A stretch of DNA of 64,000 nt from an uncultured Candidatus Saccharibacteria bacterium (GTDB lineage: Bacteria > Patescibacteriota > Saccharimonadia > Saccharimonadales > Saccharimonadaceae), in assembly GCA_964619585.1 (NCBI GenBank), contig CAZUCO010000003.1, positions 11,304 through 75,303 of the forward strand. Reading direction: 5' to 3'. The notes beneath the pieces were generated by a model. That model did not search any database. It had not been told where the DNA came from and saw only the letters and a program-made list of their open reading frames with translations. The position numbers were made by a program, and so were the translations under genes. Position 1 is the stretch's first letter. Each line of letters opens with the position of its first letter. Below, one piece after another: positions 9,278 through 64,000 of this stretch.

Positions 9278-9868
9278 TTACTCACTCAATATGTTCTCTT
9301 CATCACGTAGAACAATATGCTTACTGCTCAAAAGCTCACTAATGAAGCGATCGTGGATACTCAAACGATAGTAAAACTCATCATATGGCATCACGCTGTA
9401 GTTGAGCTCACGACCCTCCTTCTTCTCAAGTGTTTTTATAAATGAGTTAAGCTTCGCTTTCGTGACCTTACCAACTAGCAATAGATCAACATCACCCGCA
9501 GAGTGAGCTACAAATACACCAGACAAGACCGCCAGCTTTACGCCACCCAGTTCATCAAGTTTGCCCTGCCAGTCAAGTGTTGAAGGTGTCGTATCTTTGT
9601 TTGACGCTTTCACCTTGTCGCCAAATATATCTCGGAGTGAGACATAGTGCTCATAGCGTTGATTCACTTCGTAGTACAGCTTATTCTCCGCGGTATCACT
9701 CTTGATGATTCCAACATTTAGCATATTAGATAGTTCGCGTCGTACAGAGTTAATCTGTTCATCGATCAGACGTGTAATCTCCCGCACATAGAAAGATTTC
9801 CCTGGATTATTAAGAAACAGGTGTAGTAACTTTACTCGTGTTTTTGAACCAAATAATGCGTCAATCAT
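9278..9868 (-). CDS. Winged-helix (ArsR-like) transcriptional regulator with a C-terminal domain of unknown function
   Basis: KTRVKLLHLFLNNPGKSFYVREITRLIDEQINSVRRELSNMLNVGII is a typical wHTH. Confidence 0.45.
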   Translation of the reverse strand: MIDALFGSKTRVKLLHLFLNNPGKSFYVREITRLIDEQINSVRRELSNMLNVGIIKSDTAENKLYYEVNQRYEHYVSLRDIFGDKVKASNKDTTPSTLDWQGKLDELGGVKLAVLSGVFVAHSAGDVDLLLVGKVTKAKLNSFIKTLEKKEGRELNYSVMPYDEFYYRLSIHDRFISELLSSKHIVLRDEENILSE

Positions 9869-9908
9869 TCCCTCTCCGAATACTATTTATATCATAGTAG
9901 CACAGATT

Positions 9909-10661
9909 TTACTCAGAGACGATACGTGATTCGATGTAACGGCTGACCTCAGATAGATCACACCATTGAATAAACGGATTTGGGCGAAACCATGTCATCT
10001 GTCGCTTCGCAAGTTGCCAATCTTGTGTTGTTGATTTATCAACTGCAGCTTCAAGGTCAACTTCTTTTCCAAGATAAGAATGCACGATTGGATATATATT
10101 TCCCGTCATTGCTGGTGCATCCCACCCGTACTTTTTGCCCAACTTAGTTGCTTCTTCAACAACACCATTTGAAAATAATTGTTCAACCCTCTCGTATATT
10201 CTCTGACGGAGTATTTCTCTGCGTACTGCAATGCCCGCTATGATCATTCGCTCGCGGGGGCCCTGCCTCCAGTCATCACCATGCTGCTTGTGATTAGTAA
10301 AATCGAAGTTAAAAATGACGCTGTCGATATAGAGCCCAGTTCCGCCTACAAGCATCGGGGTCTTACCCCGCGCACGGATCTCTCCAATCTTACGCTCTGC
10401 ATACAACTTAAAATCAGCTGCTGTAAATCGCTTCCCAGGAGAAACAAGATCAATTCCCCAATGTGGAACTTGTGCCTGCTCATCTGATGTTGGTTTAGCT
10501 GTGCCAATATCCATACCCTTATATACCGTCCGCGAGTCGGCACAAATGATTTCACCATCTAGCCTCTTTGCAAGTTCAATCGCCACAGATGTTTTGCCAC
10601 TTGCTGTTGGACCCACGATTACAATAAGTGGAGGTTCTGATCGTATTCCTGAGGTCGCCAT
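9909..10661 (-). CDS. miaA: tRNA dimethylallyltransferase (short form)
   Basis: IVIVGPTASGKTSVAIELAKRLDGEIICADSRTVYKGMDIGTAKPT is the MiaA P-loop and substrate motif. The annotated start overlaps the upstream gene by 43 nt. Confidence 0.8.
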   Translation of the reverse strand: MATSGIRSEPPLIVIVGPTASGKTSVAIELAKRLDGEIICADSRTVYKGMDIGTAKPTSDEQAQVPHWGIDLVSPGKRFTAADFKLYAERKIGEIRARGKTPMLVGGTGLYIDSVIFNFDFTNHKQHGDDWRQGPRERMIIAGIAVRREILRQRIYERVEQLFSNGVVEEATKLGKKYGWDAPAMTGNIYPIVHSYLGKEVDLEAAVDKSTTQDWQLAKRQMTWFRPNPFIQWCDLSEVSRYIESRIVSE

Positions 10662-19586: not shown

Positions 19587-19615
19587 AGTTCTCCTTAAAT
19601 TATCTCAGCTTCTTC

Positions 19616-32940: not shown

Positions 32941-35088
32941 TTAGAATCGTGGCGGCAATTCACTCACGTAGTCAGTAGTGGCGACTGGCGTGCCGCTACC
33001 ACTGCCGAACGACGATAGATGTGCATCGGGTCGCAGATTAAATACTTCTGCGGATTTGTTCATACTGTTTTTCTTCTCCTCATTAGAAGCACCGTCAAGC
33101 GTACTTCCTGCGGTTCGGAAAAGATAGATTTTTCCAGCGTACACGGGACCATTAAATCGAAGCTGCGTACCACAAACCTCTGTTGAGAGCTTTGCCCCTG
33201 GATTATTACGATCTATTTGCGAACATGTATTGATCCAACCTTCATCACTTTCCGTGCCTGTAGTTATCAGCCATGGATCAATCTGTTCAACGTTTTCACT
33301 TATATCAAAGCTCTTCGCAAAGATCCGTACTCGAGGGAGCTTTGAGATACCGGTGTAACTATTTGCATATTTCAGATCATTACTGATAGTAAATATACCG
33401 TCACACACGTAATCGTTACGTCCAGTCAAGTTTACATTGCCACTACTACAGACTGAGGTGGCACCCTGTGGCGTCGTAGGGCGATTCGTCACCACACTGC
33501 CAAAGCAGCCATAACTTGGCGATGTAGCTCCTATCGCAGCACATGAATCATTAATATTGCTAAAGGTTAGGAGATTTCTGTTCGCTAGAGTCGAGTTACT
33601 GCCTTTATTAAGTCCAGCGCCAGATGCCATTCCACTGGTTGCTATGCCGCTCTTAGTCTCGTTGTGAATAAGCCCATTAGTGAATACACCGTACTCACCC
33701 CAGCTGCCATATATACCATTAACACCGGCTTGGGTAATAACTGTCAGACTTGTCGATATAGCTAAACTGCCGCCTGGCAGACTTGCGTTGCCCACAACAC
33801 GCAGGTCACCACCCCATACCTGAACAGAGGGTTGTCTACCCGACATTGAACAAGTCATATTACTATGACGCCACCCGCTCTTTTGAGGGGTAGGGTTCCG
33901 GACAGAAGTCATATAGCAGATCACTTCACCTAAAGCTGCGTCTGGCTCATCCGAAAAGTTACCGGTATCTGCTGGCGATGCAGGGCCACTCTTGATTGCG
34001 TCGTCACATGTCACCATATCTCCAGAAGCCCGAGCGGCTGCCGTAGCATAGGTACATGGGCTACTAGAAGAATCAGTATAGGCGGCATTTTGTGCAGTGT
34101 CCTTTGGCCAGGTCTTAAATTTCAGCCGCGCGACCTCCCATGGATGGCTACCATACACATCACCCGACCCAGGGGCCTGTGTTACCCTACCTCTAGTCTG
34201 GAACTTCATCGGGTCAGTGGAGTAGCGCGGGATTGAGTTGATAGTCGGAACTAAATTATAGGGGCCAGAGTATCTCCATGAGTAGTTAACTGTCACCGTT
34301 CGACAAACACTCGTGTCTGACTGCCCAGCGCCTTGACCTGTATACCAAAAATACTGACAAATATCGCCGCTTAGACTGTCACTACCACTCGACCTGGTGC
34401 CACTATGTACCTTGCCCGTAAGACGAGGGACAGGTAGTGAACGGACTTGATCATTGTTGCTAGGGTTTCCACTCGCAGGCCGGTCTTTCTTCTGCATAAT
34501 CAACGATTTGAATATACCCGTTGTGCAGTCATGGTTATGACCTGGTATGTTACGGTGTCGTTTATCAGTTGGCGATTCTGCTGCTTTACCATTAACTGCG
34601 CACCCCAACGACGGGTTTACCTTGTCATTACTCGTACCTTTGTCGATGTACTTTACGCAGTCCCAGGCAATATTCTCAAGTACCCCACCAACATTTGTTT
34701 GTCCACCTCCATAATATCCAGCGTTTGGACAAAATTTGGGACTAAAAATAGCATAGGATTCAGTGCTCTTGTCACACTCGCGCCATTGTACATTCGTTAT
34801 AAAGTTCAGCGTGCTTTCTGGTGAGCCAATAGTGATATCAGCACCCGTGATCCAGGCTTCAAAATTTGGCTTATCGCGTCCTTTTGAACAGAGCTTACCG
34901 CTAGGACTAGTTGGTGATACACTGTCCACGCGGGCAGTTAAAGTACCTCCGTTAGATGTGATTATCGTATTAGCTTGTGCAACTTCAGTCGGCTGCGATG
35001 CCAACAGAAAAGAAAAAAAAGCCACACTAGCTGCCACGATGAGAAAAATTCGTGATAGCCAGTTTGTTTTCAGCCTTCGGATAAGCAT
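32941..35088 (-). CDS. Large secreted Cys-rich protein of unknown function, first gene of the T4P operon
   Basis: Start at MLIRRLKTNWLSRIFLIVAASVAFFSFLLASQPTEVAQA (signal peptide or anchor). 715 aa with 18 Cys by my count, rich in Ser, Gly, Thr and Asn. I recognise no family motif. The stop is 53 nt upstream of the pilM start. Confidence 0.6.
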   Translation of the reverse strand: MLIRRLKTNWLSRIFLIVAASVAFFSFLLASQPTEVAQANTIITSNGGTLTARVDSVSPTSPSGKLCSKGRDKPNFEAWITGADITIGSPESTLNFITNVQWRECDKSTESYAIFSPKFCPNAGYYGGGQTNVGGVLENIAWDCVKYIDKGTSNDKVNPSLGCAVNGKAAESPTDKRHRNIPGHNHDCTTGIFKSLIMQKKDRPASGNPSNNDQVRSLPVPRLTGKVHSGTRSSGSDSLSGDICQYFWYTGQGAGQSDTSVCRTVTVNYSWRYSGPYNLVPTINSIPRYSTDPMKFQTRGRVTQAPGSGDVYGSHPWEVARLKFKTWPKDTAQNAAYTDSSSSPCTYATAAARASGDMVTCDDAIKSGPASPADTGNFSDEPDAALGEVICYMTSVRNPTPQKSGWRHSNMTCSMSGRQPSVQVWGGDLRVVGNASLPGGSLAISTSLTVITQAGVNGIYGSWGEYGVFTNGLIHNETKSGIATSGMASGAGLNKGSNSTLANRNLLTFSNINDSCAAIGATSPSYGCFGSVVTNRPTTPQGATSVCSSGNVNLTGRNDYVCDGIFTISNDLKYANSYTGISKLPRVRIFAKSFDISENVEQIDPWLITTGTESDEGWINTCSQIDRNNPGAKLSTEVCGTQLRFNGPVYAGKIYLFRTAGSTLDGASNEEKKNSMNKSAEVFNLRPDAHLSSFGSGSGTPVATTDYVSELPPRF

Positions 35089-35150
35089 ATGTATTATATT
35101 AAACAGCAAGTGCAACGTACATGCAAACACATGTGGTGATTCCCTGAAAT

Positions 35151-35205
35151 GAAGCAACCCCACCCCCCGTGCGATGATGCACGAGAGGCGGGGTTTGGTT
35201 GCTTC
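35151..35205 (-). terminator. GC-rich hairpin (terminator-like, no U-tract) after the island-1 gene
   Basis: GAAGCAACC..CCCC.CGTGC-gatgat-GCACG..GGGG..GGTTGCTTC, 5 nt after the TGA. Confidence 0.5.
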
Positions 35206-35210
35206 CAGGC

Positions 35211-35906
35211 TCACTGCAGCCGACGGGCGGCGCAGTACGAGGTCGCTTCCCGAGCATCCCGGAGCTGCGCCCGGTACGCGACGACGTCCGACTTCGCGTG
35301 CCTCACCATGACCTTGGCGCCGTTGAGCTGGACCTTGGCCTTCCGGAGGGCGACCTTGGCCCTGCGGACCTTCTTGGCCGCGCGGTGCTTCTTGCCCTTC
35401 TTGGCCTTGCTCAGCGCCTTCTGGGCCTTGACGACGGCCCGCTTGGCCTTGTTGAACTGAGCCATGGCCTTGTTGAACTGAGCCATGGCGTTGACGAGAA
35501 GCTGCTGCTTCGTGGTGGCGTCGTCGTTGCCGCCGCCACTGGACGAGTAGTACTCCACCGTCTCAGTCCGGGGGTTGGCAGTGCCGACCCCGTAGGTGAT
35601 GGTGACGAAGTTCGTGGCCTGGTAGGCCTCGTCGGCACACAGGACGACTCCGTTGCCGTAGCCGACGACTGTCGCCGACTGGGAGCCGTAGGTCGGATCG
35701 CTGTACTTGATCTCGATCTTGGTGGTGTAGTCCCGCACGTCACTCTGGAACGTGAGCCGGTCCGACGGAGCGCTCTGCCCCATCACGTACTTGCCCGCGA
35801 CGTACTGGACGCAGCCCGGGCCACACGGAGTGGCTCGGGCAGGCACTGTGCCGTAGGTCGTCAGCCCGAAGGCCAAAGCAACCAAGAGCACGAGAAATCT
35901 CCTCAT
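35211..35906 (-). CDS. Exported protein with a Lys/Ala-rich helical C-terminal tail (high-GC, foreign-looking)
   Basis: The signal peptide is MRRFLVLLVALAFGLTTYGTVPARA. Third codon positions are almost all G/C. The SD GGAAGGA lies 6 nt before the ATG. Competing ORFs on other frames have L/R/G/V/D-rich shadow composition. Confidence 0.7.
   Translation of the reverse strand: MRRFLVLLVALAFGLTTYGTVPARATPCGPGCVQYVAGKYVMGQSAPSDRLTFQSDVRDYTTKIEIKYSDPTYGSQSATVVGYGNGVVLCADEAYQATNFVTITYGVGTANPRTETVEYYSSSGGGNDDATTKQQLLVNAMAQFNKAMAQFNKAKRAVVKAQKALSKAKKGKKHRAAKKVRRAKVALRKAKVQLNGAKVMVRHAKSDVVAYRAQLRDAREATSYCAARRLQ
35445..35486. repeat. Perfect 21-bp tandem duplication inside the island-1 gene
   Basis: GGCCTTGTTGAACTGAGCCAT occurs twice (35445-35465 and 35466-35486) and encodes AMAQFNK-AMAQFNK. 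Confidence 0.95.
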
Positions 35907-36196
35907 GTTGGTCCTTCCGGTAGGTAGGATGAATCGTAGAGCCTGAAAGTTAAATGTGCCCCCGCGGAAAGCGGAATTACATCAACGCTTCCAGGACACT
36001 GCGATCCATACGGTGTACAGATTACCTAAATTATCTCATAAAGCTACACAAATAGAAAGCACAAGTAGTTTGATTATTCAAGGATTAAATCTACAACGAA
36101 GCTGTGGATACTTATTCAGATCACTTAACAAATAAGCCAAATCCCCTTACGCTTCATTGGATACGAACGGATATGGTGATCCTACCCCTGTTTTGT

Positions 36197-36202
36197 TATA
36201 AT
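36197..36202 (+). promoter_or_regulatory. Extended -10 promoter of ychF (leaderless or near-leaderless)
   Basis: TGTTATAAT, with only 8 nt between the -10 element and the ATG at 36211. No SD is present. Confidence 0.5.
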
Positions 36203-36210
36203 ACTCACAT

Positions 36211-37290
36211 ATGTCACTCTCGATCGGCATCGTAGGTCTCCCCAACGTCGGCAAGTCGACGCTTTTTAATGCGCTTACTAATAGCGAGATTTTGGCCGCC
36301 AACTATCCATTCGCTACGATCGAGCCAAATACTGGTATCGTGCCAGTGCCCGACGAGCGACTCAACGTCCTGAAAGATATATATAACTCTGAGAAGATCC
36401 TCCCTGCAACAGTCACATTTGTTGACATTGCCGGTCTGGTGGCAGGTGCAAGCAAAGGAGAAGGTCTCGGCAACAAATTTCTCGCCAATATTCGTCAGTG
36501 TGATGCGATTGTACACATCGTACGTGCTTTTCATAGCAGCGATATCCTCCGGCACGACGACAGTGAGGTAAACCCCGAAGCAGATATTGAGATCATCAAT
36601 ACCGAGCTTATCTTGGCCGATCTAGAAACACTGCAAAAACGCGTACCTGCCCTGCAAAAAGAAGCCAAGGCCAAACCAGCCGCACGTGAAAAACTCAGCT
36701 ACCTCGAGAGTCTTATCCGTCATCTCGAGACAGGCACGCCACTATCTGGCCTCCCTTCTCTTGATACTGAAGCAATCGCAGACCTCCACCTTCTAACCGC
36801 CAAGCCGGTTATCTACGCATTCAATGTTGACGAGGCGACACTGGTTGATAGCGAAGCACAGGCAAAGTTAAACACTCTCGTGGCGCCAGCCCGAACACTT
36901 TTTGTGTGCGCCAAGCTCGAAGAAGAACTCAAAGGCCTCGATGAAAGCGATGCCAAAGAACTGCTTGAGAGCTATGGAGTAGAAGATACTGGTCTTGTAC
37001 AGATGATCCATGCCGCATATGAGACGCTGGGACTACAAAGCTATCTGACTGCCGGACCAAAGGAAGTGCGAGCTTGGACGATCAAGCGAGGCTACACTGC
37101 ACCACAAGCTGCAGGGGTGATCCACACTGATTTTGAACGAGGTTTTATTGCTGCACAAATTGTTGATTATGATGATCTCGTGACTGCCGGCAGCGAACAA
37201 GCAGCCAAGGCAGCTGGAAAAGTACGCACTGAGGGCAAAGACTATGTCATGCAGCCCGGCGATGTCGTAGAATTCAGATTTAACGTTTAA
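36211..37290 (+). CDS. ychF: Ribosome-binding ATPase YchF (Obg-family)
   Basis: IGIVGLPNVGKSTLFNALT, a C-terminal TGS-like domain (VRAWTIKRGYTAPQAAGVIHTDFERGFI) and normal GC (31/60 in 36241-36300). Confidence 0.95.
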   Translation: MSLSIGIVGLPNVGKSTLFNALTNSEILAANYPFATIEPNTGIVPVPDERLNVLKDIYNSEKILPATVTFVDIAGLVAGASKGEGLGNKFLANIRQCDAIVHIVRAFHSSDILRHDDSEVNPEADIEIINTELILADLETLQKRVPALQKEAKAKPAAREKLSYLESLIRHLETGTPLSGLPSLDTEAIADLHLLTAKPVIYAFNVDEATLVDSEAQAKLNTLVAPARTLFVCAKLEEELKGLDESDAKELLESYGVEDTGLVQMIHAAYETLGLQSYLTAGPKEVRAWTIKRGYTAPQAAGVIHTDFERGFIAAQIVDYDDLVTAGSEQAAKAAGKVRTEGKDYVMQPGDVVEFRFNV

Positions 37291-37325
37291 GGAGGGGTTC
37301 ACCCGCCCCCTCCGTTTCATTTTTG
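37291..37325 (+). terminator. Intrinsic terminator of ychF
   Basis: GGAGGGG-ttcacccgc-CCCCTCC followed by GTTTCATTTTT. Confidence 0.65.
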
Positions 37326-37430
37326 GAGTAAATCCAAAAAATCACTCCACCCTCAAGTCTCCATCGCCTATGGCGACTGTCGACTTGCTCAGTTTACACT
37401 TCGTTATAAAAATTCTTTAGAAATTAAACT

Positions 37431-38392
37431 AGCGGAGCGTCCGCCAGAGCAGACCGGCCATTTCTGGCTGATCCACTCCGGCGAACACCCCGCGAACATC
37501 ACGACCCCGGCAGGCAGTACAGCCTGGCATCCTTCCGCGGAAGGCGGTACTTCCCGGTCGCAGTGATAGCCACCCGGAGGACCTGCTCACCGGGCGCCAG
37601 CTCATCGTCGAGCACGAGCACCAGATCACCGTCGCCGAAGCTGAGGTCGTAGCGTCGCACGACCACCTGACCGTTGGCCTGCTTGATCCGCACCCGGAAC
37701 TTCGACTTCGGCGTCAGGTTGACAGTACGGGGCCGCTCCTGCAGTGAGAAGTGGTACTCCCGGATCTGACACTCACCGGGCGGGATCGAGTTCGTCTTCC
37801 AGACGAACCGCTTGGTCCACCTGGCCGGCCGCCACCAGTCGAAGACGATCGGCTGCTTGGTCAGGGTCCGCTTGGTAGCCGGATCGATGACCAAGATGTA
37901 CCACTCGACACCACTCCCCCGCTTGATCGCGGGGAGGTGGTACACCATGGCCGTGTTGGCCAGTTGAGGAACGGTGAGATCGTCAGGACCGAAGTCGCTC
38001 TCCGATACACCGAACGCGAGCTGGACGGAGTAGTCGCCGGTGACCACCCGCACACGCGGGCGGCCTTTCCGGTCAACTTTCATCGGTACCAGCACGTCGG
38101 GGAGATGGGACGAGTCGTCGGTAGCCGACGACACCGCAGCCACCTTGGCCATGATCACTGGCTGGCCCGTCTCACGCAGAGACGAACACATTGCAACCAG
38201 TAGCGCTGCTACAAGCAACAACGCTCCGATCATGGTGAGGCGAATCTTGGTTGAGCGAGTCATCACTGACTCACCACCTTTCTTGGGTGTTGAGGGGGAA
38301 GGTGATGTAAAAACGCGCTCAGAAAAACTTCCGAGCACTTCTTTGCGCGCGTTTACAGTCACGGCACAACGAGATTAATTATAGCATAATCT
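37431..38392. other. High-GC compositional island 2 (single-gene cassette)
   Basis: 36/60 G+C in 37921-37980. Shadow ORFs occur on both strands. Imperfect direct repeats, TTCTTTAGAAATTAAA (37412-37427) and TCTTTTAGAAAGTAAA (38390-38405), lie at the edges. Confidence 0.7.
37499..38263 (-). CDS. Membrane-anchored / lipoprotein-like exported protein of unknown function (high-GC, foreign-looking)
   Basis: The start is at MTRSTKIRLTMIGALLLVAALLVAMCSS. The SD AAAGGTGGTGA lies 7 nt upstream. Codon usage is G/C3-rich. The track's longer start at 38362 has no SD. Confidence 0.65.
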   Translation of the reverse strand: MTRSTKIRLTMIGALLLVAALLVAMCSSLRETGQPVIMAKVAAVSSATDDSSHLPDVLVPMKVDRKGRPRVRVVTGDYSVQLAFGVSESDFGPDDLTVPQLANTAMVYHLPAIKRGSGVEWYILVIDPATKRTLTKQPIVFDWWRPARWTKRFVWKTNSIPPGECQIREYHFSLQERPRTVNLTPKSKFRVRIKQANGQVVVRRYDLSFGDGDLVLVLDDELAPGEQVLRVAITATGKYRLPRKDARLYCLPGS

Positions 38393-38423
38393 TTTAGAAA
38401 GTAAATATATGGAAAAGGTCCGG

Positions 38424-38456
38424 CATCTCGTCTCGCAACAAGACGAACGAGATGCT
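38424..38456 (-). terminator. Hairpin terminator after tlyA
   Basis: GCATCTCGT...ACGAGATGC overlaps the stop and is followed on the minus strand by CGGACCTTTTCC. Confidence 0.5.
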
Positions 38457-39168
38457 AAACGATTCTCAGAAGATAGAACCGCTCTCGATTACCCTTAGCG
38501 CCGGCAACTTCACTATCCTTTTTGTCTATAGTCATAAAGTAACGCTTCGACCAAGCTTCAAAATCGCGCAAGATAGCACGACGAACTGCATCGTTTTTGA
38601 TAACACCTTTGTTGATCTGCTCCTTACCAGCCTCAAACTGCGGCTTCAGCATAGCAACTATCTTCGTATCACGATTAGAGATTGCAGCAATGTGAGGCAA
38701 AATCTCGCGTAAACTGATAAAGCTCACATCCATAACGACCACGTCTGGAGGTACAGCAGGAGTAAAGTCCCGAATGTCCGTCTTTTCATGAAGCTCGATT
38801 CGCTTGTCACCACGGAGACTCGGATGAAGCTGCTCGGTGCCAACATCGACAGCAATCGACTTAGTTGCCCCGTGTTGCAAAGCATAGTCCGTAAATCCGC
38901 CCGTGCTACTTCCCACGTCGAGAATCACTTTACCACCAAAATCTACTCCGAGTGCTTCCGCAACACTTGCAAGCTTGAGACCTGCTCTACTAACATATCG
39001 CTCACTGGCCGTAAGCTTTACGGCAATCTCTTTATCTACCATATATCCTGGCTTTGTCACTGTTTTATTATTGACCATCACCTGACCAAGCCGTATCAGA
39101 TTAGCCGCCTGTGAACGTGACTGAACAAGTTGTTTCGTGACGAGCAGTTCATCGAGCCGTTGTCTCAT
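38455..39168 (-). CDS. tlyA: TlyA-family rRNA 2'-O-methyltransferase
   Basis: N-terminal S4 domain (RLDELLVTKQLVQSRSQAANLIRLGQVMVN) and an FtsJ-type SAM motif (ILDVGSSTGGFTD). Confidence 0.85.
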   Translation of the reverse strand: MRQRLDELLVTKQLVQSRSQAANLIRLGQVMVNNKTVTKPGYMVDKEIAVKLTASERYVSRAGLKLASVAEALGVDFGGKVILDVGSSTGGFTDYALQHGATKSIAVDVGTEQLHPSLRGDKRIELHEKTDIRDFTPAVPPDVVVMDVSFISLREILPHIAAISNRDTKIVAMLKPQFEAGKEQINKGVIKNDAVRRAILRDFEAWSKRYFMTIDKKDSEVAGAKGNRERFYLLRIV

Positions 39169-52299: not shown

Positions 52300-52824
52300 C
52301 TACAGGGTTATCGGTCGACAGTCATTAAGATATTCCTTAGTGCAAGACACATTCCTACCCGACCCGTCACTCGCTTCATCGAGCATATCATCTGTTAGGA
52401 CGGTAAGGCTTGGATTTGCCACTGCAGTATTCAATTGATACGTTCTTATTCGCCAACTCCCAGAAGCATAATCCCAGTAATAAACGAAGAATCTTACATC
52501 TATATCTGTTGATATCCTCGAAACCCCATACTGGTTCCGTCCCACACGTCTGCCCGACCCGTCGTATGCTTCTATGCCCTTGTCTGCAACCCCACCAAAA
52601 TTATTCGACTTAAGATCATCCAGTGAAGCTGGAAGTGTATTATTTGCTACGAAATACACATTCATCTTTCTATCTGCATTGCCAAGATCAACCTTGAGCA
52701 CTGATATCCTTGCTCTATTCTGTATACCGTCGTAGGCAACGATAGCTATTGCCGCCAAAATTGCTATCACAATAATTACAATGAGAAGTTCAATTAAGGT
52801 AAATCCTCTTGTGTTTTTCCTCAT
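52300..52824 (-). CDS. Orphan type IV pilin-like protein
   Basis: MRKNTRG/FTLIELLIVIIVIAILAAIAIVAY is a canonical class III signal with Glu at +5. Confidence 0.75.
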   Translation of the reverse strand: MRKNTRGFTLIELLIVIIVIAILAAIAIVAYDGIQNRARISVLKVDLGNADRKMNVYFVANNTLPASLDDLKSNNFGGVADKGIEAYDGSGRRVGRNQYGVSRISTDIDVRFFVYYWDYASGSWRIRTYQLNTAVANPSLTVLTDDMLDEASDGSGRNVSCTKEYLNDCRPITL

Positions 52825-52873
52825 ATGATTTATGATAGCATCATTGAGAGAAGTAATGCATTCAATATACTAT

Positions 52874-53374
52874 TTAAATATGTACTGATTCCAGTATCTT
52901 CTCAAGTCGTTCATGTAGCCGTGTGACTCGTCCTTCTACATCGATATTCTCGCGGAGCTGGGTCCGCGATATCTTACTTGCTTCTGTGATTCCTCTTACA
53001 TGAAGTGAACAGTCTAGATCCGCACAAACTAAGTATGATACCGAGCCATTTACTGATTTCTTGAGAGTCAATATACCGGAACCAGTCCCTCGTCGCCACG
53101 TGGCACAGATATCGCAGATAACTGCCTCAACCCTACCAACAGAATTTGCCCTTCGCTTGGCGAATGTAAACGGAATCATATTCTCTCGATATATTAGGAC
53201 ACCCGCGTTGCCTGTTCGGTCGAATATTGCCAAGAAATCCCGATCACTCCAATGATCGATCAGCTCTGGTTGATAACGTAGCTGCTCACGCTGCTTTTTA
53301 CGTAGCTTAGCCTGAGCGGCATGTTCATCAAATTGTATTTTTGTGATGATATCCATAGTACTACTATACTTCAC
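52874..53374 (-). CDS. FBP-domain (FusB/FusC-like EF-G-binding family) protein
   Basis: The C-terminal treble-clef-like pattern is CDICATWRRG...YLVCADLDCSLHVR. Confidence 0.45.
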   Translation of the reverse strand: MKYSSTMDIITKIQFDEHAAQAKLRKKQREQLRYQPELIDHWSDRDFLAIFDRTGNAGVLIYRENMIPFTFAKRRANSVGRVEAVICDICATWRRGTGSGILTLKKSVNGSVSYLVCADLDCSLHVRGITEASKISRTQLRENIDVEGRVTRLHERLEKILESVHI

Positions 53375-62786: not shown

Positions 62787-64000
62787 CTCTGGCCAGGAAT
62801 CTTGAACTGAGCGGGATCAGCTGCCTGAGGCTGAACAGGTGATGCCGGGCTTTGTACGGCTGGCATATCGCCAAACACCTGCCCTAGCTGCTCAGCTGGG
62901 GTGATAGGACTACCAGGCATTGGTGGAGGTGGTGGCGGAGGTAGCGCAGTAAAGTCTGGTGGAGCAATTGATGGTGGCGGAGGTAGTGGCATCGACGCCG
63001 GAGCTGGCGCCGTGTCATGCGGCACTTCTCCAAGCTGCTGTGCACCACTTGCCTCGAGTGGGTTATTTGCCGGGTTAAATGGCGCACTACCGTAGGCTGC
63101 CTCAACAGCTGCCATGGCATCACCATGAGAAGAGCGATTCTTGGTGTCAAGATCAGCCAACGTCTCGTGGATAGGCTCAATCGCCGGAGCAACTCCGGGA
63201 GCTGGCTCAGGTGCTGACATGAGTGGCTCAATATTTTGCTCGTCAGGATCAGACTGCATAGCAGCAGTAAAAGGCGGAGTAGATGCTGTCGAATTACTAG
63301 CTGGCTGGCTAGGAGAATCGTGCGAAAGGATCGTACGATTTCTTGATTGCTCAGCCTCGTGCTGCTTGTCGAGCGCGGCCTGCTCAGTAGTAGCGTTTAG
63401 CACTCCACCAAAGGTAGGTTCGTAGTCTGGTTTTGGAATCTCATTTGATACAGACTCCTTTTTGGCTGAATCTACTGTAGCCGCCTCTTCTACCTCAGCG
63501 CTCGCAGCAGCCAAGTCTTTTTGCAGATCAGCTACGGAAGGAGTAGCCGCGGCGACGGTACCACCGGTTTCTTGAGCAACAGACTGTAGCTGCGAAGCAA
63601 GTATGTCTTCAGCTTTTTCAGCCGCTTCAGCTGAACGCTCTTGCTGCACTTGATCGGCGACTTGCTCAGGAGTACCCTCGAGCTCATGGTTGATAGCTAG
63701 TGCACCATCTTCTTTGGGCGTTTCCGCTTTAGCTGCTTTTTTTGACTTCTTTGATTTGTTCTGGCGATCAATTTTACTGCTCGCGCCTTCGGCGAGATCA
63801 GTCGTACCGTCGTTGTTTTCCGGTGAAGCATCTTCTGTATCAGTAGCATTATCAGATGATATCTCATGAGCTTCTTCAAGTTTGGCTGCAATCAACTGTT
63901 GATTGGCACCAGCTGCCATCAGCTGCGCTGCCATTGTCATTACCTTTGAACTTGTCTTGTTGTTACTGAAACGATCAGTCGCTGAGACAATACCTGTCAA
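62783..64000 (-). CDS. Protein with a long acidic/Pro-rich disordered C-terminal tail (5' end outside the window); the N-terminal visible part is DHH/NrnA-like
   Basis: The open frame runs to the window edge. TGIVSATDRFSNNKTSSKVMTMAAQLMAAGANQQLIA resembles the DHH-family segment (TGIxTDTGxF). About 350 aa of low-complexity sequence follow, ending in PPPPSIAPPDFTALPPPPPPPMPG. Confidence 0.4.
   Translation of the reverse strand: MTGIVSATDRFSNNKTSSKVMTMAAQLMAAGANQQLIAAKLEEAHEISSDNATDTEDASPENNDGTTDLAEGASSKIDRQNKSKKSKKAAKAETPKEDGALAINHELEGTPEQVADQVQQERSAEAAEKAEDILASQLQSVAQETGGTVAAATPSVADLQKDLAAASAEVEEAATVDSAKKESVSNEIPKPDYEPTFGGVLNATTEQAALDKQHEAEQSRNRTILSHDSPSQPASNSTASTPPFTAAMQSDPDEQNIEPLMSAPEPAPGVAPAIEPIHETLADLDTKNRSSHGDAMAAVEAAYGSAPFNPANNPLEASGAQQLGEVPHDTAPAPASMPLPPPPSIAPPDFTALPPPPPPPMPGSPITPAEQLGQVFGDMPAVQSPASPVQPQAADPAQFKIPGQS

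Follow-up and report, generated by a model that had tools for sequence, protein, structure and literature searches.

How Saccharibacteria recognize and hold their hosts is, to our knowledge, largely obscure apart from the pili themselves. The mycobacterial heparin-binding haemagglutinin (HBHA), displayed on the surface of an actinobacterium, has a coiled coil and, for attachment to polyanionic surface polymers, a basic segment rich in Lys and Ala. This segment is a Lys/Ala/Pro repeat without fixed structure, not a helical hairpin, and HBHA has neither a signal peptide nor a β-sandwich. In Nanosynbacter lyticus TM7x two type IV pilus loci have been described, T4P-1 and T4P-2, and the pilus-associated proteins of Saccharibacteria are fast-evolving and mediate host binding (PMC11623550, PMC9894109). 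Saccharibacteria are also naturally competent (PMC10633639). Here we describe a GC-rich gene (the cassette gene) that heads a pilus cluster in a Saccharibacteria genome.

A GC-rich island with one genuine gene

The DNA analysed, hereafter the window, is a stretch of 64,000 nt with a mean GC content of 47.9% (SD 4.2%, 300-nt windows). A previous reading made from the letters alone (the sequence-only reading) supposed a Saccharibacteria-type genome, which was borne out, the sister locus L002 belonging to Candidatus Saccharimonadales. It also reported a high-GC island, and its G+C counts for the island and two neighbouring genes (39/60, 28/60 and 31/60) were exact on recount. Positions 35151-35930 are 64.4% GC, against flanks of 35.5% (35089-35150) and 39.6% (35931-36210), with boundaries that are sharp in composition, and every quantitative check of GC, GC3 and tetranucleotides upheld the deviation. 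GC3 in the minus-strand ORF 35211-35906 is 0.888 vs 0.459±0.051 in the 56 other ORFs of the window (z = 8.4), its GC1 and GC2 being ordinary (z 0.2 and 1.6), and tetranucleotide distance reaches the window maximum at 35201-36000 (robust z 8.3), tied with a second island (island 2). High GC is confined to the coding sequence and terminator, with the leader at native composition, and codon choice in the minus-strand ORF is actinobacteria-like (GCC, GTC, GGC, CGG, AAG).

Three overlapping ORFs are present as previously listed (35199-35927 plus, 35211-35906 minus and 35411-35743 minus), and the earlier choice of the long minus-strand frame as the real gene was correct on the grounds of GC3 periodicity, a conserved family, a confident fold and an antisense frame that is broken in five loci. 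The two longer ORFs are as follows.

35211..35906, minus strand: real coding sequence of an exported 231-aa precursor (β-sandwich plus basic helical hairpin), by GC3 periodicity, homologues of the same architecture and AlphaFold
35199..35927, plus strand: antisense 242-aa ORF, a non-gene by-product of high GC3, interrupted in homologous loci

The antisense ORF is open only in the highest-GC3 copies (window, L001, L008 and L009) and broken in L003, L004, L006, L010 and L012, these five interruptions leading us to reject a conserved antisense gene. The public gene call is this plus-strand ORF, as seen in L013, and the true minus-strand protein is missing from the protein collection; the databases overlooked the gene because gene callers choose the wrong strand in its GC-rich copies. 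One could, on the strength of that gene call, take the plus-strand ORF for the true product, or else regard the island as an assembly or binning artefact, chimeras being possible for high-GC inserts in a contig of 48% GC. However, a separate Logan assembly of run SRR8893623 contains a 1304-nt exact match to 34911-36214, and because it spans both junctions the contig is no assembly chimera, a concern of the sequence-only reading. As eight other contigs show the identical arrangement, and the minus-strand product has a confident fold and a conserved family whilst its antisense frame is interrupted, this explanation is refuted and its probability is negligible. We conclude that the GC-rich island exists and that it contains one genuine gene, for an exported protein.

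Transcription unit

The cassette gene would constitute a self-contained, single-gene transcription unit (35151-36038, minus strand), comprising an extended -10 promoter that is conserved, a ~117-nt leader, a Shine-Dalgarno sequence, the 231-codon ORF and a strong hairpin as putative terminator.

36030..36038, minus strand: extended -10 box TGAGATAAT of the promoter, 131 nt before the ATG, assigned by conservation
35907..36023, minus strand: long 5' leader, not GC-rich, from alignment with L001 and leader comparison
35966..35992, minus strand: putative leader hairpin core GGAAGCG-TTGATGTAATTC-CGCTTTCC, from RNAalifold on four class-1 leaders
35912..35918, minus strand: Shine-Dalgarno GGAAGGA, 5 nt before the ATG, from the sequence
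35151..35206, minus strand: putative terminator hairpin directly after the stop codon, from folding and a terminator scan

A generic sigma-70 scan found no canonical promoter for the gene, and the -10 box was assigned because it is conserved among loci: GAGATAAT lies 131-183 nt upstream of the ATG at six of them (the window, L001, L003, L004, L006 and L012). Most homologous loci also have a -35 box, TTTACA, at a distance of 17 nt from the -10 on its upstream side; in the window the -35 is weak. The leader length of ~117 nt assumes that transcription starts ~7 nt past the -10. This leader is conserved with L001, and its core with L003 and L010 too (leader class 1). RNAalifold on the four class-1 leaders gave 14 pairs, with invariant core pairs and compensatory changes in two pairs only, which lends weak support to the putative hairpin. 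An Rfam scan of 34900-38700 (E up to 5) returned no match, in the leader or elsewhere.

The Shine-Dalgarno sequence had been noticed before, although its spacer to the ATG is 5 nt rather than 6. The 3' hairpin, earlier described as having no U-tract, is very stable (-47.2 kcal/mol, z -5.8, with a GC-rich stem) and is followed by a weak U tail, UUCAUUUC, that barely satisfies the scan rule of 5 T in 8, so that the scan reports a terminator-like site. Clear U-tracts are found at the same position in L001, L003, L004, L008 and L012. A hairpin of 16-20 bp occupies the terminator position in 8/8 Saccharibacteria copies, with unrelated stem sequences, and is absent from both copies on high-GC DNA.

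Genomic location and homologues

The cassette gene lies in a slot with the order ychF / cassette gene / large secreted protein / pilM…pilB-pilT-pilC, the neighbours being the following.

36211..37290, plus strand: ychF, the divergent upstream neighbour and other edge of the slot, by identity to flanking YchF genes
32941..35088, minus strand: large neighbour, a 715-aa secreted protein and constant partner, downstream of the cassette gene
35089-35112, minus strand: conserved promoter of the large neighbour, identical in L001

Homologues occupy this slot in at least seven further Saccharibacteria contigs (L003, L004, L006, L007, L008, L010 and L012), whilst L001 has kept the link to the large gene, only that part of the slot. 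It is L001, from another Saccharimonadales genome, that carries the nearest homologue, 64% identical over the aligned full length and directly upstream of the large-gene orthologue. More distant copies of the protein show 25-36% identity, as compared with 82-87% for PilB and 78-85% for YchF between the same genomes; ychF of the window is 78-85% identical to the YchF genes that flank the homologues of L003, L006 and L007, and YchF flanks the homologue in L010 and L012 too. The large neighbour, itself followed by pilM, pilB, pilT and pilC, is 46% identical to its L001 orthologue and follows the cassette homologue in L001, L003, L004, L006, L007, L010 and L012. It has no Pfam or NCBIfam match, and with this protein as query a scan of genome contigs returned L001's genome only. 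Promoter box and terminator position are common to the Saccharibacteria copies.

Metagenome-contig scans with the family profile, built from two sequences, and with a group-A profile found no relatives, nor did viral-contig scans; tblastn gave no match for the window protein in phage and plasmid collections or for a Nocardioides family member in plasmids. A homology search by words, with the family alignment as query, was flooded by Lys/Ala words and returned four proteins, and actinobacterial relatives beyond these profile and word searches could exist. As a separate observation, GC-rich but non-homologous cargo genes of a neighbouring slot look as if they had been transferred in the ordinary way from high-GC donors; the island-2 protein is unrelated to the GC-rich genes of neighbouring slots in L006.

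These data bear directly on the sequence-only reading's main proposal, that the cassette was recently imported from a high-GC donor, namely the actinobacterial host, and has not yet been ameliorated. In its favour are the GC3 of 0.89 with actinobacteria-like codon choice, the sharp boundaries, the existence of some family members on high-GC DNA and a window-L001 synonymous distance below that of the adjacent gene (excess identity 0.38 vs 0.15). Against this, the slot is not empty in relatives, where the same promoter box, leader type and terminator position recur; the homology search and tree place the nearest homologues within Saccharibacteria and the high-GC-context copies in another clade; and 1.84 billion cluster representatives yielded just two from a high-GC context, of which the Nocardioides copy is clearly, and the L009 copy mildly, GC-poor for its context. 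The synonymous pattern, moreover, appears stationary (see below). Insertion scars in the form of flanking repeats were not found: the caution already voiced over CCTGAAA, which occurs at both island edges, was well placed, with eight window matches vs 8.8 expected and none in the homologous loci, and CTGGAAGC likewise occurs at chance frequency and is not conserved. No mobility gene lies in the interval from ychF to the large gene, and the cassette matched no phage, plasmid or viral carrier. Judged by synteny, recent import is contradicted, the cassette being a conserved feature of this locus in the whole clade and its nearest homologues lying inside CPR, and we regard such an import as very unlikely. 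That this is a real, conserved and locus-resident gene and not a recent import can be held with high confidence; the family would long have resided at one set place in Saccharimonadales genomes, with ychF on one side and, on the other, the large secreted protein at the head of the pilus genes.

Copies on high-GC DNA

Two copies are found on high-GC DNA: WP_129474571.1 of Nocardioides glacieisoli and that of the L009 contig, labelled actinobacterial from its GC content and gene content only. The Nocardioides copy has a GC3 of 0.68 vs ~0.95 for its genome and is clearly GC-poor, and the L009 copy is mildly so, with ~0.66 GC in a stretch of 0.63-0.70 that adjoins genes of 0.70-0.78. In a bootstrapped tree of 19 sequences, 11/19 with an assigned taxon, the window copy belongs to a clade in which the two Saccharibacteria copies are the sole known members, and both high-GC-context copies nest among Saccharibacteria copies in clade B (97% bootstrap). 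The previously drawn link to high-GC actinobacteria thus holds in so far as family members do exist on such DNA, but recent donation to the window is unsupported. As far as these sequences tell, cross-phylum exchange of the family has occurred, by a route other than the one first proposed, and the distribution together with a tree that has a taxon for 11/19 sequences makes transfer from epibiont to host the more likely direction. A Nocardioides copy that is GC-poor for its genome, in a family present in few high-GC genomes, would provide direct sequence evidence of gene flow between epibiont and host.

It might also be proposed that alleles shuttle, gaining GC3 in high-GC actinobacterial genomes, then recombining with the resident allele to return to the locus in Saccharibacteria, and thus reaching equilibrium in neither phylum. 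Such a scheme would account for a Nocardioides copy that is GC-poor and Saccharibacteria copies that are GC-rich, each for its own genome, for the interleaving of both kinds in clade B, for GC3 differences between allele clades and for GC-richness limited to the coding sequence and terminator beside a native leader; allele P0003 looks mosaic, and natural competence (PMC10633639) would supply the means. However, no recent cross-phylum pair is seen and synonymous identity between the phyla is at chance, known copies on high-GC DNA are very few, a return to the same locus would be hard to achieve mechanistically where flanking homology is lacking, and allele clade and leader class remain linked. 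We therefore consider shuttling unlikely.

Persistence of high GC3

Every family copy has a GC3 of 0.66-0.89 vs backgrounds of 0.40-0.55, with values that vary by allele clade, being lowest in L003 and L006 and 0.78-0.89 in the window, L001, L008 and L012. Between these genomes 4-fold sites of housekeeping genes are near saturation (identity excess 0.09-0.14). GC3 also correlates with GARP content and with GC1. The window-L001 pair has seven A/T third positions in common vs 2.6 expected (p 0.005), and 15/41 of its synonymous differences are G<->C; in this test on ~130 codons, the substitution pattern therefore appears stationary and not decaying. High GC3 would thus be a heritable trait of the family in genomes of 46-52% GC, kept whilst neighbouring synonymous sites became saturated.

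The GC3 range, with L003 and L006 at its lower end, could alternatively be the fading relic of one ancient high-GC acquisition by a Saccharimonadales ancestor, followed by vertical descent and neutral, lineage-dependent amelioration. Further GC-rich genes do lie nearby, and a rough estimate from the near-saturated housekeeping sites suggests that an import at the common ancestor would by now have fallen to ~0.6, near the lowest copies. The 0.78-0.89 of the other four copies, however, far exceeds that expectation, the window-L001 pair gives no sign of decay, and YchF/PilB similarity disagrees with both the gene tree and the leader class, showing that descent is not simply vertical. Neutral fading from an ancient import is, as such, rather unlikely.

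Active maintenance of GC3 in place is a possibility to which we would give a little under even chances, and our leading guess for the force involved is selection or biased repair acting on the cassette gene. Recombination-driven GC bias is disfavoured as the sole cause, as the equally divergent large neighbour has a GC3 of 0.42. Translational selection is likewise disfavoured: the pilus genes and other window ORFs have a GC3 of 0.34-0.58, and AAG, CAG and GAG are also among the favoured codons. We know of no mechanism that holds one gene at GC3 0.85-0.9 in a genome of 48% GC, and such a gene is a clean natural experiment on the non-neutral forces that act on base composition.

Architecture of the protein

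The signal peptide, CGPGC motif, GGG linker and basic Lys/Ala tail recognized by the sequence-only reading are all present, the tail being a predicted antiparallel helical hairpin, and its claim of an exported product was supported by the SPase I-type signal peptide in the translation.

35832..35906, minus strand: signal peptide, residues 1-25, ending ARA, SPase I type without lipobox, from translation, AF2 and family N-termini
35538..35831, minus strand: acidic eight-strand β-sandwich, residues 26-123, pI 4.6, from AF2 strands (residues 34-117) and charge
35811-35825, minus strand: CGPGC, inside the β-sandwich domain
35637-35639, minus strand: invariant Cys90, inside the β-sandwich domain
35229..35519, minus strand: basic antiparallel helical hairpin, residues 130-226, pI 11.6, from AF2 and charge
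35444..35493, minus strand: 21-nt (one-heptad) tandem duplication in helix 1, AMAQFNK twice, from TRF (period 21, 2.4 copies, 96% match)
35232-35234, minus strand: invariant Cys225, in an A-Y-C motif just ahead of the C-terminus

The mature protein of ~206 aa would be Sec-exported and consist of the acidic eight-strand β-sandwich and two long antiparallel helices, with the C-terminus folding back to the β-domain. The cleavage site of the signal peptide was judged by eye; AF2 places a helix at residues 3-15, followed by a low-confidence linker, and hydrophobic N-termini are comparable in all family members. In the AlphaFold model (pLDDT 88.4, pTM 0.72) the hairpin helices span residues 130-170 and 173-226 at pLDDT >90, and the 97 hairpin residues include 27 K+R vs 3 D+E (net +24). 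Duplications of 21 nt have arisen independently in the L003, L004 and L012 alleles. Across 17 sequences the invariant columns are L51, D70, Y73, Q76, C90, T109, A168 and C225, all of which the window protein has, as it has the other hallmarks of the family: the β-domain motif Y-x-D-P-x-Y-G-x-Q, the β-domain Cys, the Lys/Arg/Ala-rich two-helix tail and a C-terminal [AS]-[YFA]-C. A disulfide between C90 and C225 probably staples the C-terminus to the β-domain.

By sequence comparison, this is a small, previously undescribed and very fast-evolving family. Searches with the window protein gave no Pfam family (best E 0.088), nothing above cutoff in NCBIfam, PHROGs matches of E 3e-3 or weaker to tape-measure coiled coils, and PDB sequence matches that were coiled-coil noise. 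Foldseek returned nothing at E 1e-3 or better from PDB, only generic hairpin and Ig-like resemblances, and matches with TM-scores of 0.2 from BFVD. A type IV pilin or minor pilin was rejected: there is no Pfam N_methyl match, the signal is of SPase I type ending ARA, and the AF2 model has no lollipop helix. In the literature we found no description of the protein, nor of GC-atypical genes at the pilus locus.

Comparison with known systems

Architecture and neighbourhood suggest, at somewhat less than even chances, an extracellular host-interface factor that binds the host surface or a polyanion. Through its polycationic hairpin the protein would attach to DNA or to polyanionic polymers of the envelope, whilst diversifying pressure would drive the evolution of the variable β-domain and of hairpin length. 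As a whole package, the single-gene unit, exported protein, slot residency, heritable GC3 and interface function together form what we consider, with somewhat better than even confidence, the best explanation of this locus.

The R domain of colicins E3/E9 (PDB 1JCH, 5EW5, 2YSU) is, like the tail of the window protein, a long, projecting antiparallel two-helix hairpin, and superposes on window residues ~130-226 with an RMSD of 2.1-2.5 Å over ~100 residues. The tip of the colicin hairpin touches a receptor on the target-cell surface, and a similar reach-and-bind role may be proposed here. There is, however, no sequence relationship (14-15% identity), the Foldseek E-value is ~1e-2, and a match would be expected of any long helical hairpin. 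Colicins also have translocation and toxin domains, both of which the window protein lacks, whilst its hairpin, unlike that of colicins, is polycationic and apparently disulfide-stapled to a β-sandwich.

SEC10/PrgA (TIGR04320) of Gram-positive conjugative plasmids is likewise exported to the surface and has a long antiparallel stalk of Ala/Lys-rich helices. The hairpins of the window protein, P0006 and P0008 align to the C-terminal part of the TIGR04320 model, in its coiled-coil part only, with scores of 21.5, 26.5 and 17.9 bits vs a curated cutoff of 70, and membership of the SEC10/PrgA domain was rejected on these scores. The window protein is also much smaller and has no LPXTG anchor, and the similarity may be purely compositional. 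Control of cell-cell attachment, by analogy with SEC10/PrgA, would fit the genomic context. A bolder version of this analogy, which we regard as a long shot, is that of a host-epibiont interface gene moving between actinobacterial hosts and the Saccharibacteria that live on them: expressed next to the pilus genes of the epibiont, it would encode a secreted factor for attachment or exclusion and be GC-rich from a past in, or functional compatibility with, high-GC host genomes, and the host copies (Nocardioides, L009) would be decoys or surface-exclusion factors that block epibiont attachment as PrgA might.

A likeness to HBHA and other Lys/Ala-rich polyanion-binding adhesins may be drawn, but no search of the window protein detected homology. 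The closest parallel in location is the pilus locus itself, as the cassette gene heads a PilM, PilB, PilT and PilC cluster like T4P-1 of N. lyticus TM7x. The window protein is unmentioned in the papers on Saccharibacteria type IV pili (PMC11623550, PMC9894109), and differs from pilus components in that it has no prepilin leader or N-terminal pilin helix and is served by its own promoter and terminator. As a conserved, rapidly diversifying and exported partner of the pilus locus, it is nevertheless a concrete candidate for a host-interface factor.

A genuine GC-rich island and the gene it contains

The island and its neighbours lie in the window as follows:
32941-35088 (-), large neighbour, 715 aa, followed by the pilM … pilB-pilT-pilC cluster
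35211-35906 (-), cassette gene, 231-aa precursor
36211-37290 (+), ychF
37499-38362 (-), gene of a second GC island, ATG at 38263

The composition jump at the island is sharp and genuine: positions 35151-35930 contain 64.4% GC, against a window mean of 47.9% (sd 4.2%, 300-nt windows) and flanks of 35.5% (35089-35150) and 39.6% (35931-36210). The three 60-nt G+C counts behind the sequence-only reading, which took the island for a recent import, were reproduced exactly, and the deviation was also found in GC3 and tetranucleotide usage. GC3 of the cassette gene is 0.888 versus 0.459±0.051 in the 56 other ORFs (z 8.4), with ordinary GC1 and GC2. In tetranucleotide usage no part of the window deviates more than 35201-36000 (robust z 8.3), which ties with the second island (37401-38200). 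The pair of CCTGAAA motifs at the island edges is ascribed to chance (8 matches versus 8.8 expected). A chimeric contig is excluded: run SRR8893623, assembled separately in Logan, gives a sequence identical to window 34911-36214, island included.

The overlapping ORFs described earlier are all present, and the minus-strand ORF 35211-35906 was rightly chosen as the real gene: homologs of identical architecture were found, its product gives a confident AlphaFold model (pLDDT 88.4, pTM 0.72) and the antisense frame is broken elsewhere. Only where GC is highest among the copies does this 242-aa plus-strand ORF remain open; it is interrupted in the compared loci L003, L004, L006, L010 and L012. The expected Shine–Dalgarno sequence is present, with a spacer of 5 nt rather than 6 nt. 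As the public gene call took the plus-strand ORF (contig L013, 12337-13065, equivalent to window 35199-35927(+)), the true minus-strand protein is absent from the protein collection. In the annotated L001 homolog (P0001) the 35 N-terminal residues are missing. Gene callers may fail systematically on GC-rich genes of mid-GC CPR genomes, which would leave such genes under-represented in protein databases.

A family tied to the pilus locus

The exported proteins encoded by the cassette gene and its homologs form an undescribed and mis-annotated family. It evolves fast and is tied to the Saccharibacteria pilus locus; its GC-rich composition is persistent, and it has crossed the epibiont–host boundary. 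The single homolog returned by a word-based search comes from a MAG of Candidatus Saccharimonadales. When 1.84 billion representatives were searched exhaustively with a profile, 19 hits were obtained, ∼16 of them full-length members (183-263 aa). Genomic context was obtained for nine family proteins, in 11 contigs or places besides the window (Table).

Table. GC3 and genomic context of family members (locus; protein; source; GC3; context)
Window; -; Saccharibacteria; 0.89; between ychF and the large neighbour
L001; P0001; Saccharibacteria; 0.84; homolog, then large-gene ortholog (46% identical to the window's); other flanks different
L003; P0005; Saccharibacteria; 0.66; ychF, homolog, large protein
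L004; P0002; Saccharibacteria; 0.71; homolog, large protein, pilM … pilB-pilT-pilC, pilin
L006, L007; P0003; Saccharibacteria; 0.67 (L006); ychF, small ORF, homolog, 833-aa protein, pilM … pilB-pilT-pilC, pilin
L008; P0008; Saccharibacteria; 0.84; homolog upstream of pilM … pilB cluster
L010; P0010; Saccharibacteria; 0.71; ychF, homolog, 745-aa protein
L011; P0010; -; -; 1.2-kb contig, too short for context
L012; P0007; Saccharibacteria; 0.78; ychF, PAP2 gene, homolog, 720-aa protein
L005; P0006; Nocardioides glacieisoli; 0.68; unrelated, adjoins DUF222/HNH gene
L009; P0004; high-GC contig (63-78% GC); 0.84; carotenoid, P450 and MerR genes

These contexts make the cassette gene a fixed component heading a PilT-containing pilus cluster, which corresponds to the T4P-1 locus type of TM7x (PMC11623550). 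Judged by what the sequence-only reading had itself named as counting against it, the idea of a recent import from the host finds no support. The regions around both copies on high-GC DNA look variable: in Nocardioides (L005 8470-10053) the family member overlaps the end of the DUF222/HNH gene, and in L009 (1-9000) it lies in a 63-70% GC stretch also carrying a GmrSD-type restriction gene.

PilB and YchF are 82-87% and 78-85% identical among these Saccharibacteria genomes, and the large neighbour 33-48%. The cassette protein, 64% identical to that of L001 and 25-36% to more distant copies, evolves very fast, like surface or host-interaction proteins. The large neighbour, likely a second host-interface protein, has no known domain; it carries an N-terminal signal or anchor without a pilin leader, and the ∼300 aligned residues at its start are rich in Cys and 67% identical to L001 (remainder 36%).

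The slots flanking ychF hold GC-rich genes (59-63% GC) that lack Pfam domains, are not homologous and differ by genome: a 477-aa protein plus sortase (L003 4952-6862), a repeat protein of 705 aa and another protein of 246 aa (L006 4945-7062 and 8928-9668), and a 252-aa protein (L004 591-1349). The pattern suggests a hot spot where GC-rich genes for secreted proteins collect. Flanked by ychF and an S4/FtsJ-type gene, the second island deviates both in GC3 (0.76, z 5.9) and in tetranucleotide usage (z 8.2). Its 254-aa product has a hydrophobic segment at the N-terminus, belongs to no Pfam or NCBIfam family and has only two relatives in the databases: P0023, which is the protein itself, and P0024, 51% identical. 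A third, weaker anomaly (62801-64000; GC ≤59.7% at 62801-63200, tetranucleotide z 3.6-4.7) lies at the window end within an ORF running off the edge. Low-GC patches (33-34%) occur at 701-1900 and 52601-52900, and tetranucleotide z reaches 3.3-3.8 at 201-1400.

Persistence of high GC3

Background GC3 in Saccharibacteria is 0.40-0.55. Housekeeping fourfold sites are near saturation between these genomes (identity excess over composition 0.09-0.14), so a neutral import in the common ancestor should now show at most near 0.6. Between the window and L001 alleles, shared A/T third positions number 7 versus 2.6 expected under independence (p 0.005), and G<->C swaps account for 15 of the 41 synonymous differences; such a pattern is that of evolution at stationary high GC3, not of decay. 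In a small sample of eight non-independent copies, GC3 correlates with GC1 (rho 0.79) as well as with the content of GARP amino acids (rho 0.86), and the pressure thus reaches non-synonymous sites. Translational selection is an unlikely cause, since the window's other ORFs, pilus genes included, have GC3 of 0.34-0.58 and the G-ending codons AAG, CAG and GAG are favoured too in the cassette gene. Recombination-linked GC bias alone is likewise unlikely: the large neighbour is just as divergent, and its GC3 is 0.42.

A locus-native transcription unit

The motif TGAGATAAT recurs 131-183 nt upstream of the ATG in six Saccharibacteria loci, most of which also have TTTACA 17 nt further upstream; the sole other TGAGATAAT in the window is at 19599-19607. 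Leaders fall into two classes that track allele clades. In class 1 (window, L001, L003, L010) the hairpin core is invariant, with little covariation; an Rfam scan of the window (34900-38700, E up to 5) gave no match. The ∼170-nt class 2 leader, unrelated in sequence to the window's, is strongly conserved in four loci (L004 ∼1530-1700, L006 ∼9830-10000, L012 ∼2070-2250, L008 ∼1030-1190); it has the common core GGTGRTTGGTCAA…GCTCGTG…CTCGACAG and may be a structured cis-regulatory RNA. A 3' hairpin (16-20 bp, -40 to -48 kcal/mol) follows all eight Saccharibacteria copies, with stem sequences unrelated among them, and is missing from both copies on high-GC DNA. The downstream gene has its own promoter, identical in the window and L001. 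Together with the common promoter box, leaders and hairpins, this makes the unit monocistronic and locus-native; its GC-rich parts are the CDS and terminator only.

Allele exchange and direction of transfer

In a bootstrapped NJ tree, the window and L001 group at 100%. Known-context members of clade A (100%) are all Saccharibacterial, and clade B (97%) contains both high-GC-context sequences, at separate positions among the Saccharibacteria copies. Neither allele clade nor leader class agrees with the similarity of YchF and PilB: by these two proteins the window's nearest loci are L004 and L006, yet its leader is of the class found in L003 and L010. One allele also looks mosaic. Alleles are therefore exchanged among Saccharibacteria. 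Epibiont-to-host transfer is more likely than the reverse, given that copies on high-GC DNA are rare and nested in the tree and that the Nocardioides copy has less GC than is usual in its genome (GC3 of neighbouring genes, 0.89-0.98); the L009 copy has GC ∼0.66 within a 0.63-0.70 stretch, adjoining genes of 0.70-0.78. With eight tree members lacking a known origin, this direction falls short of proof.

The exported protein

As had been read from the sequence, the product is exported and has a signal peptide, CGPGC, GGG linker and basic tail, with the 3' hairpin behind its gene. Its parts are:
residues 1-25, SPase I-type signal, ending ARA
residues ∼26-123, eight-strand beta-sandwich, pI 4.6
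residues 130-170 and 173-226, antiparallel helical hairpin, 27 K+R versus 3 D+E, pI 11.6

Lipobox, LPXTG and pilin leader are absent. Invariant in 17 family members are L51, D70, Y73, Q76, C90, T109, A168 and C225; as the C-terminus folds back to the beta-domain, C90 and C225 are likely to staple it there by a disulfide. Tandem duplications of 21 nt, or one heptad, have arisen independently in the hairpin of four alleles, and hairpin length therefore evolves in heptad steps. Tentatively, and short of probable, the polycationic hairpin might bind host envelope polyanions or DNA, the beta-domain being variable. Pfam, NCBIfam, PHROGs, PDB sequences, PDB folds and BFVD gave no significant matches. 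The hairpin does match the SEC10/PrgA surface-exclusion model consistently, at a sub-threshold 18-27 bits (cutoff 70), and bears a generic resemblance to the receptor-binding hairpin of colicin E.
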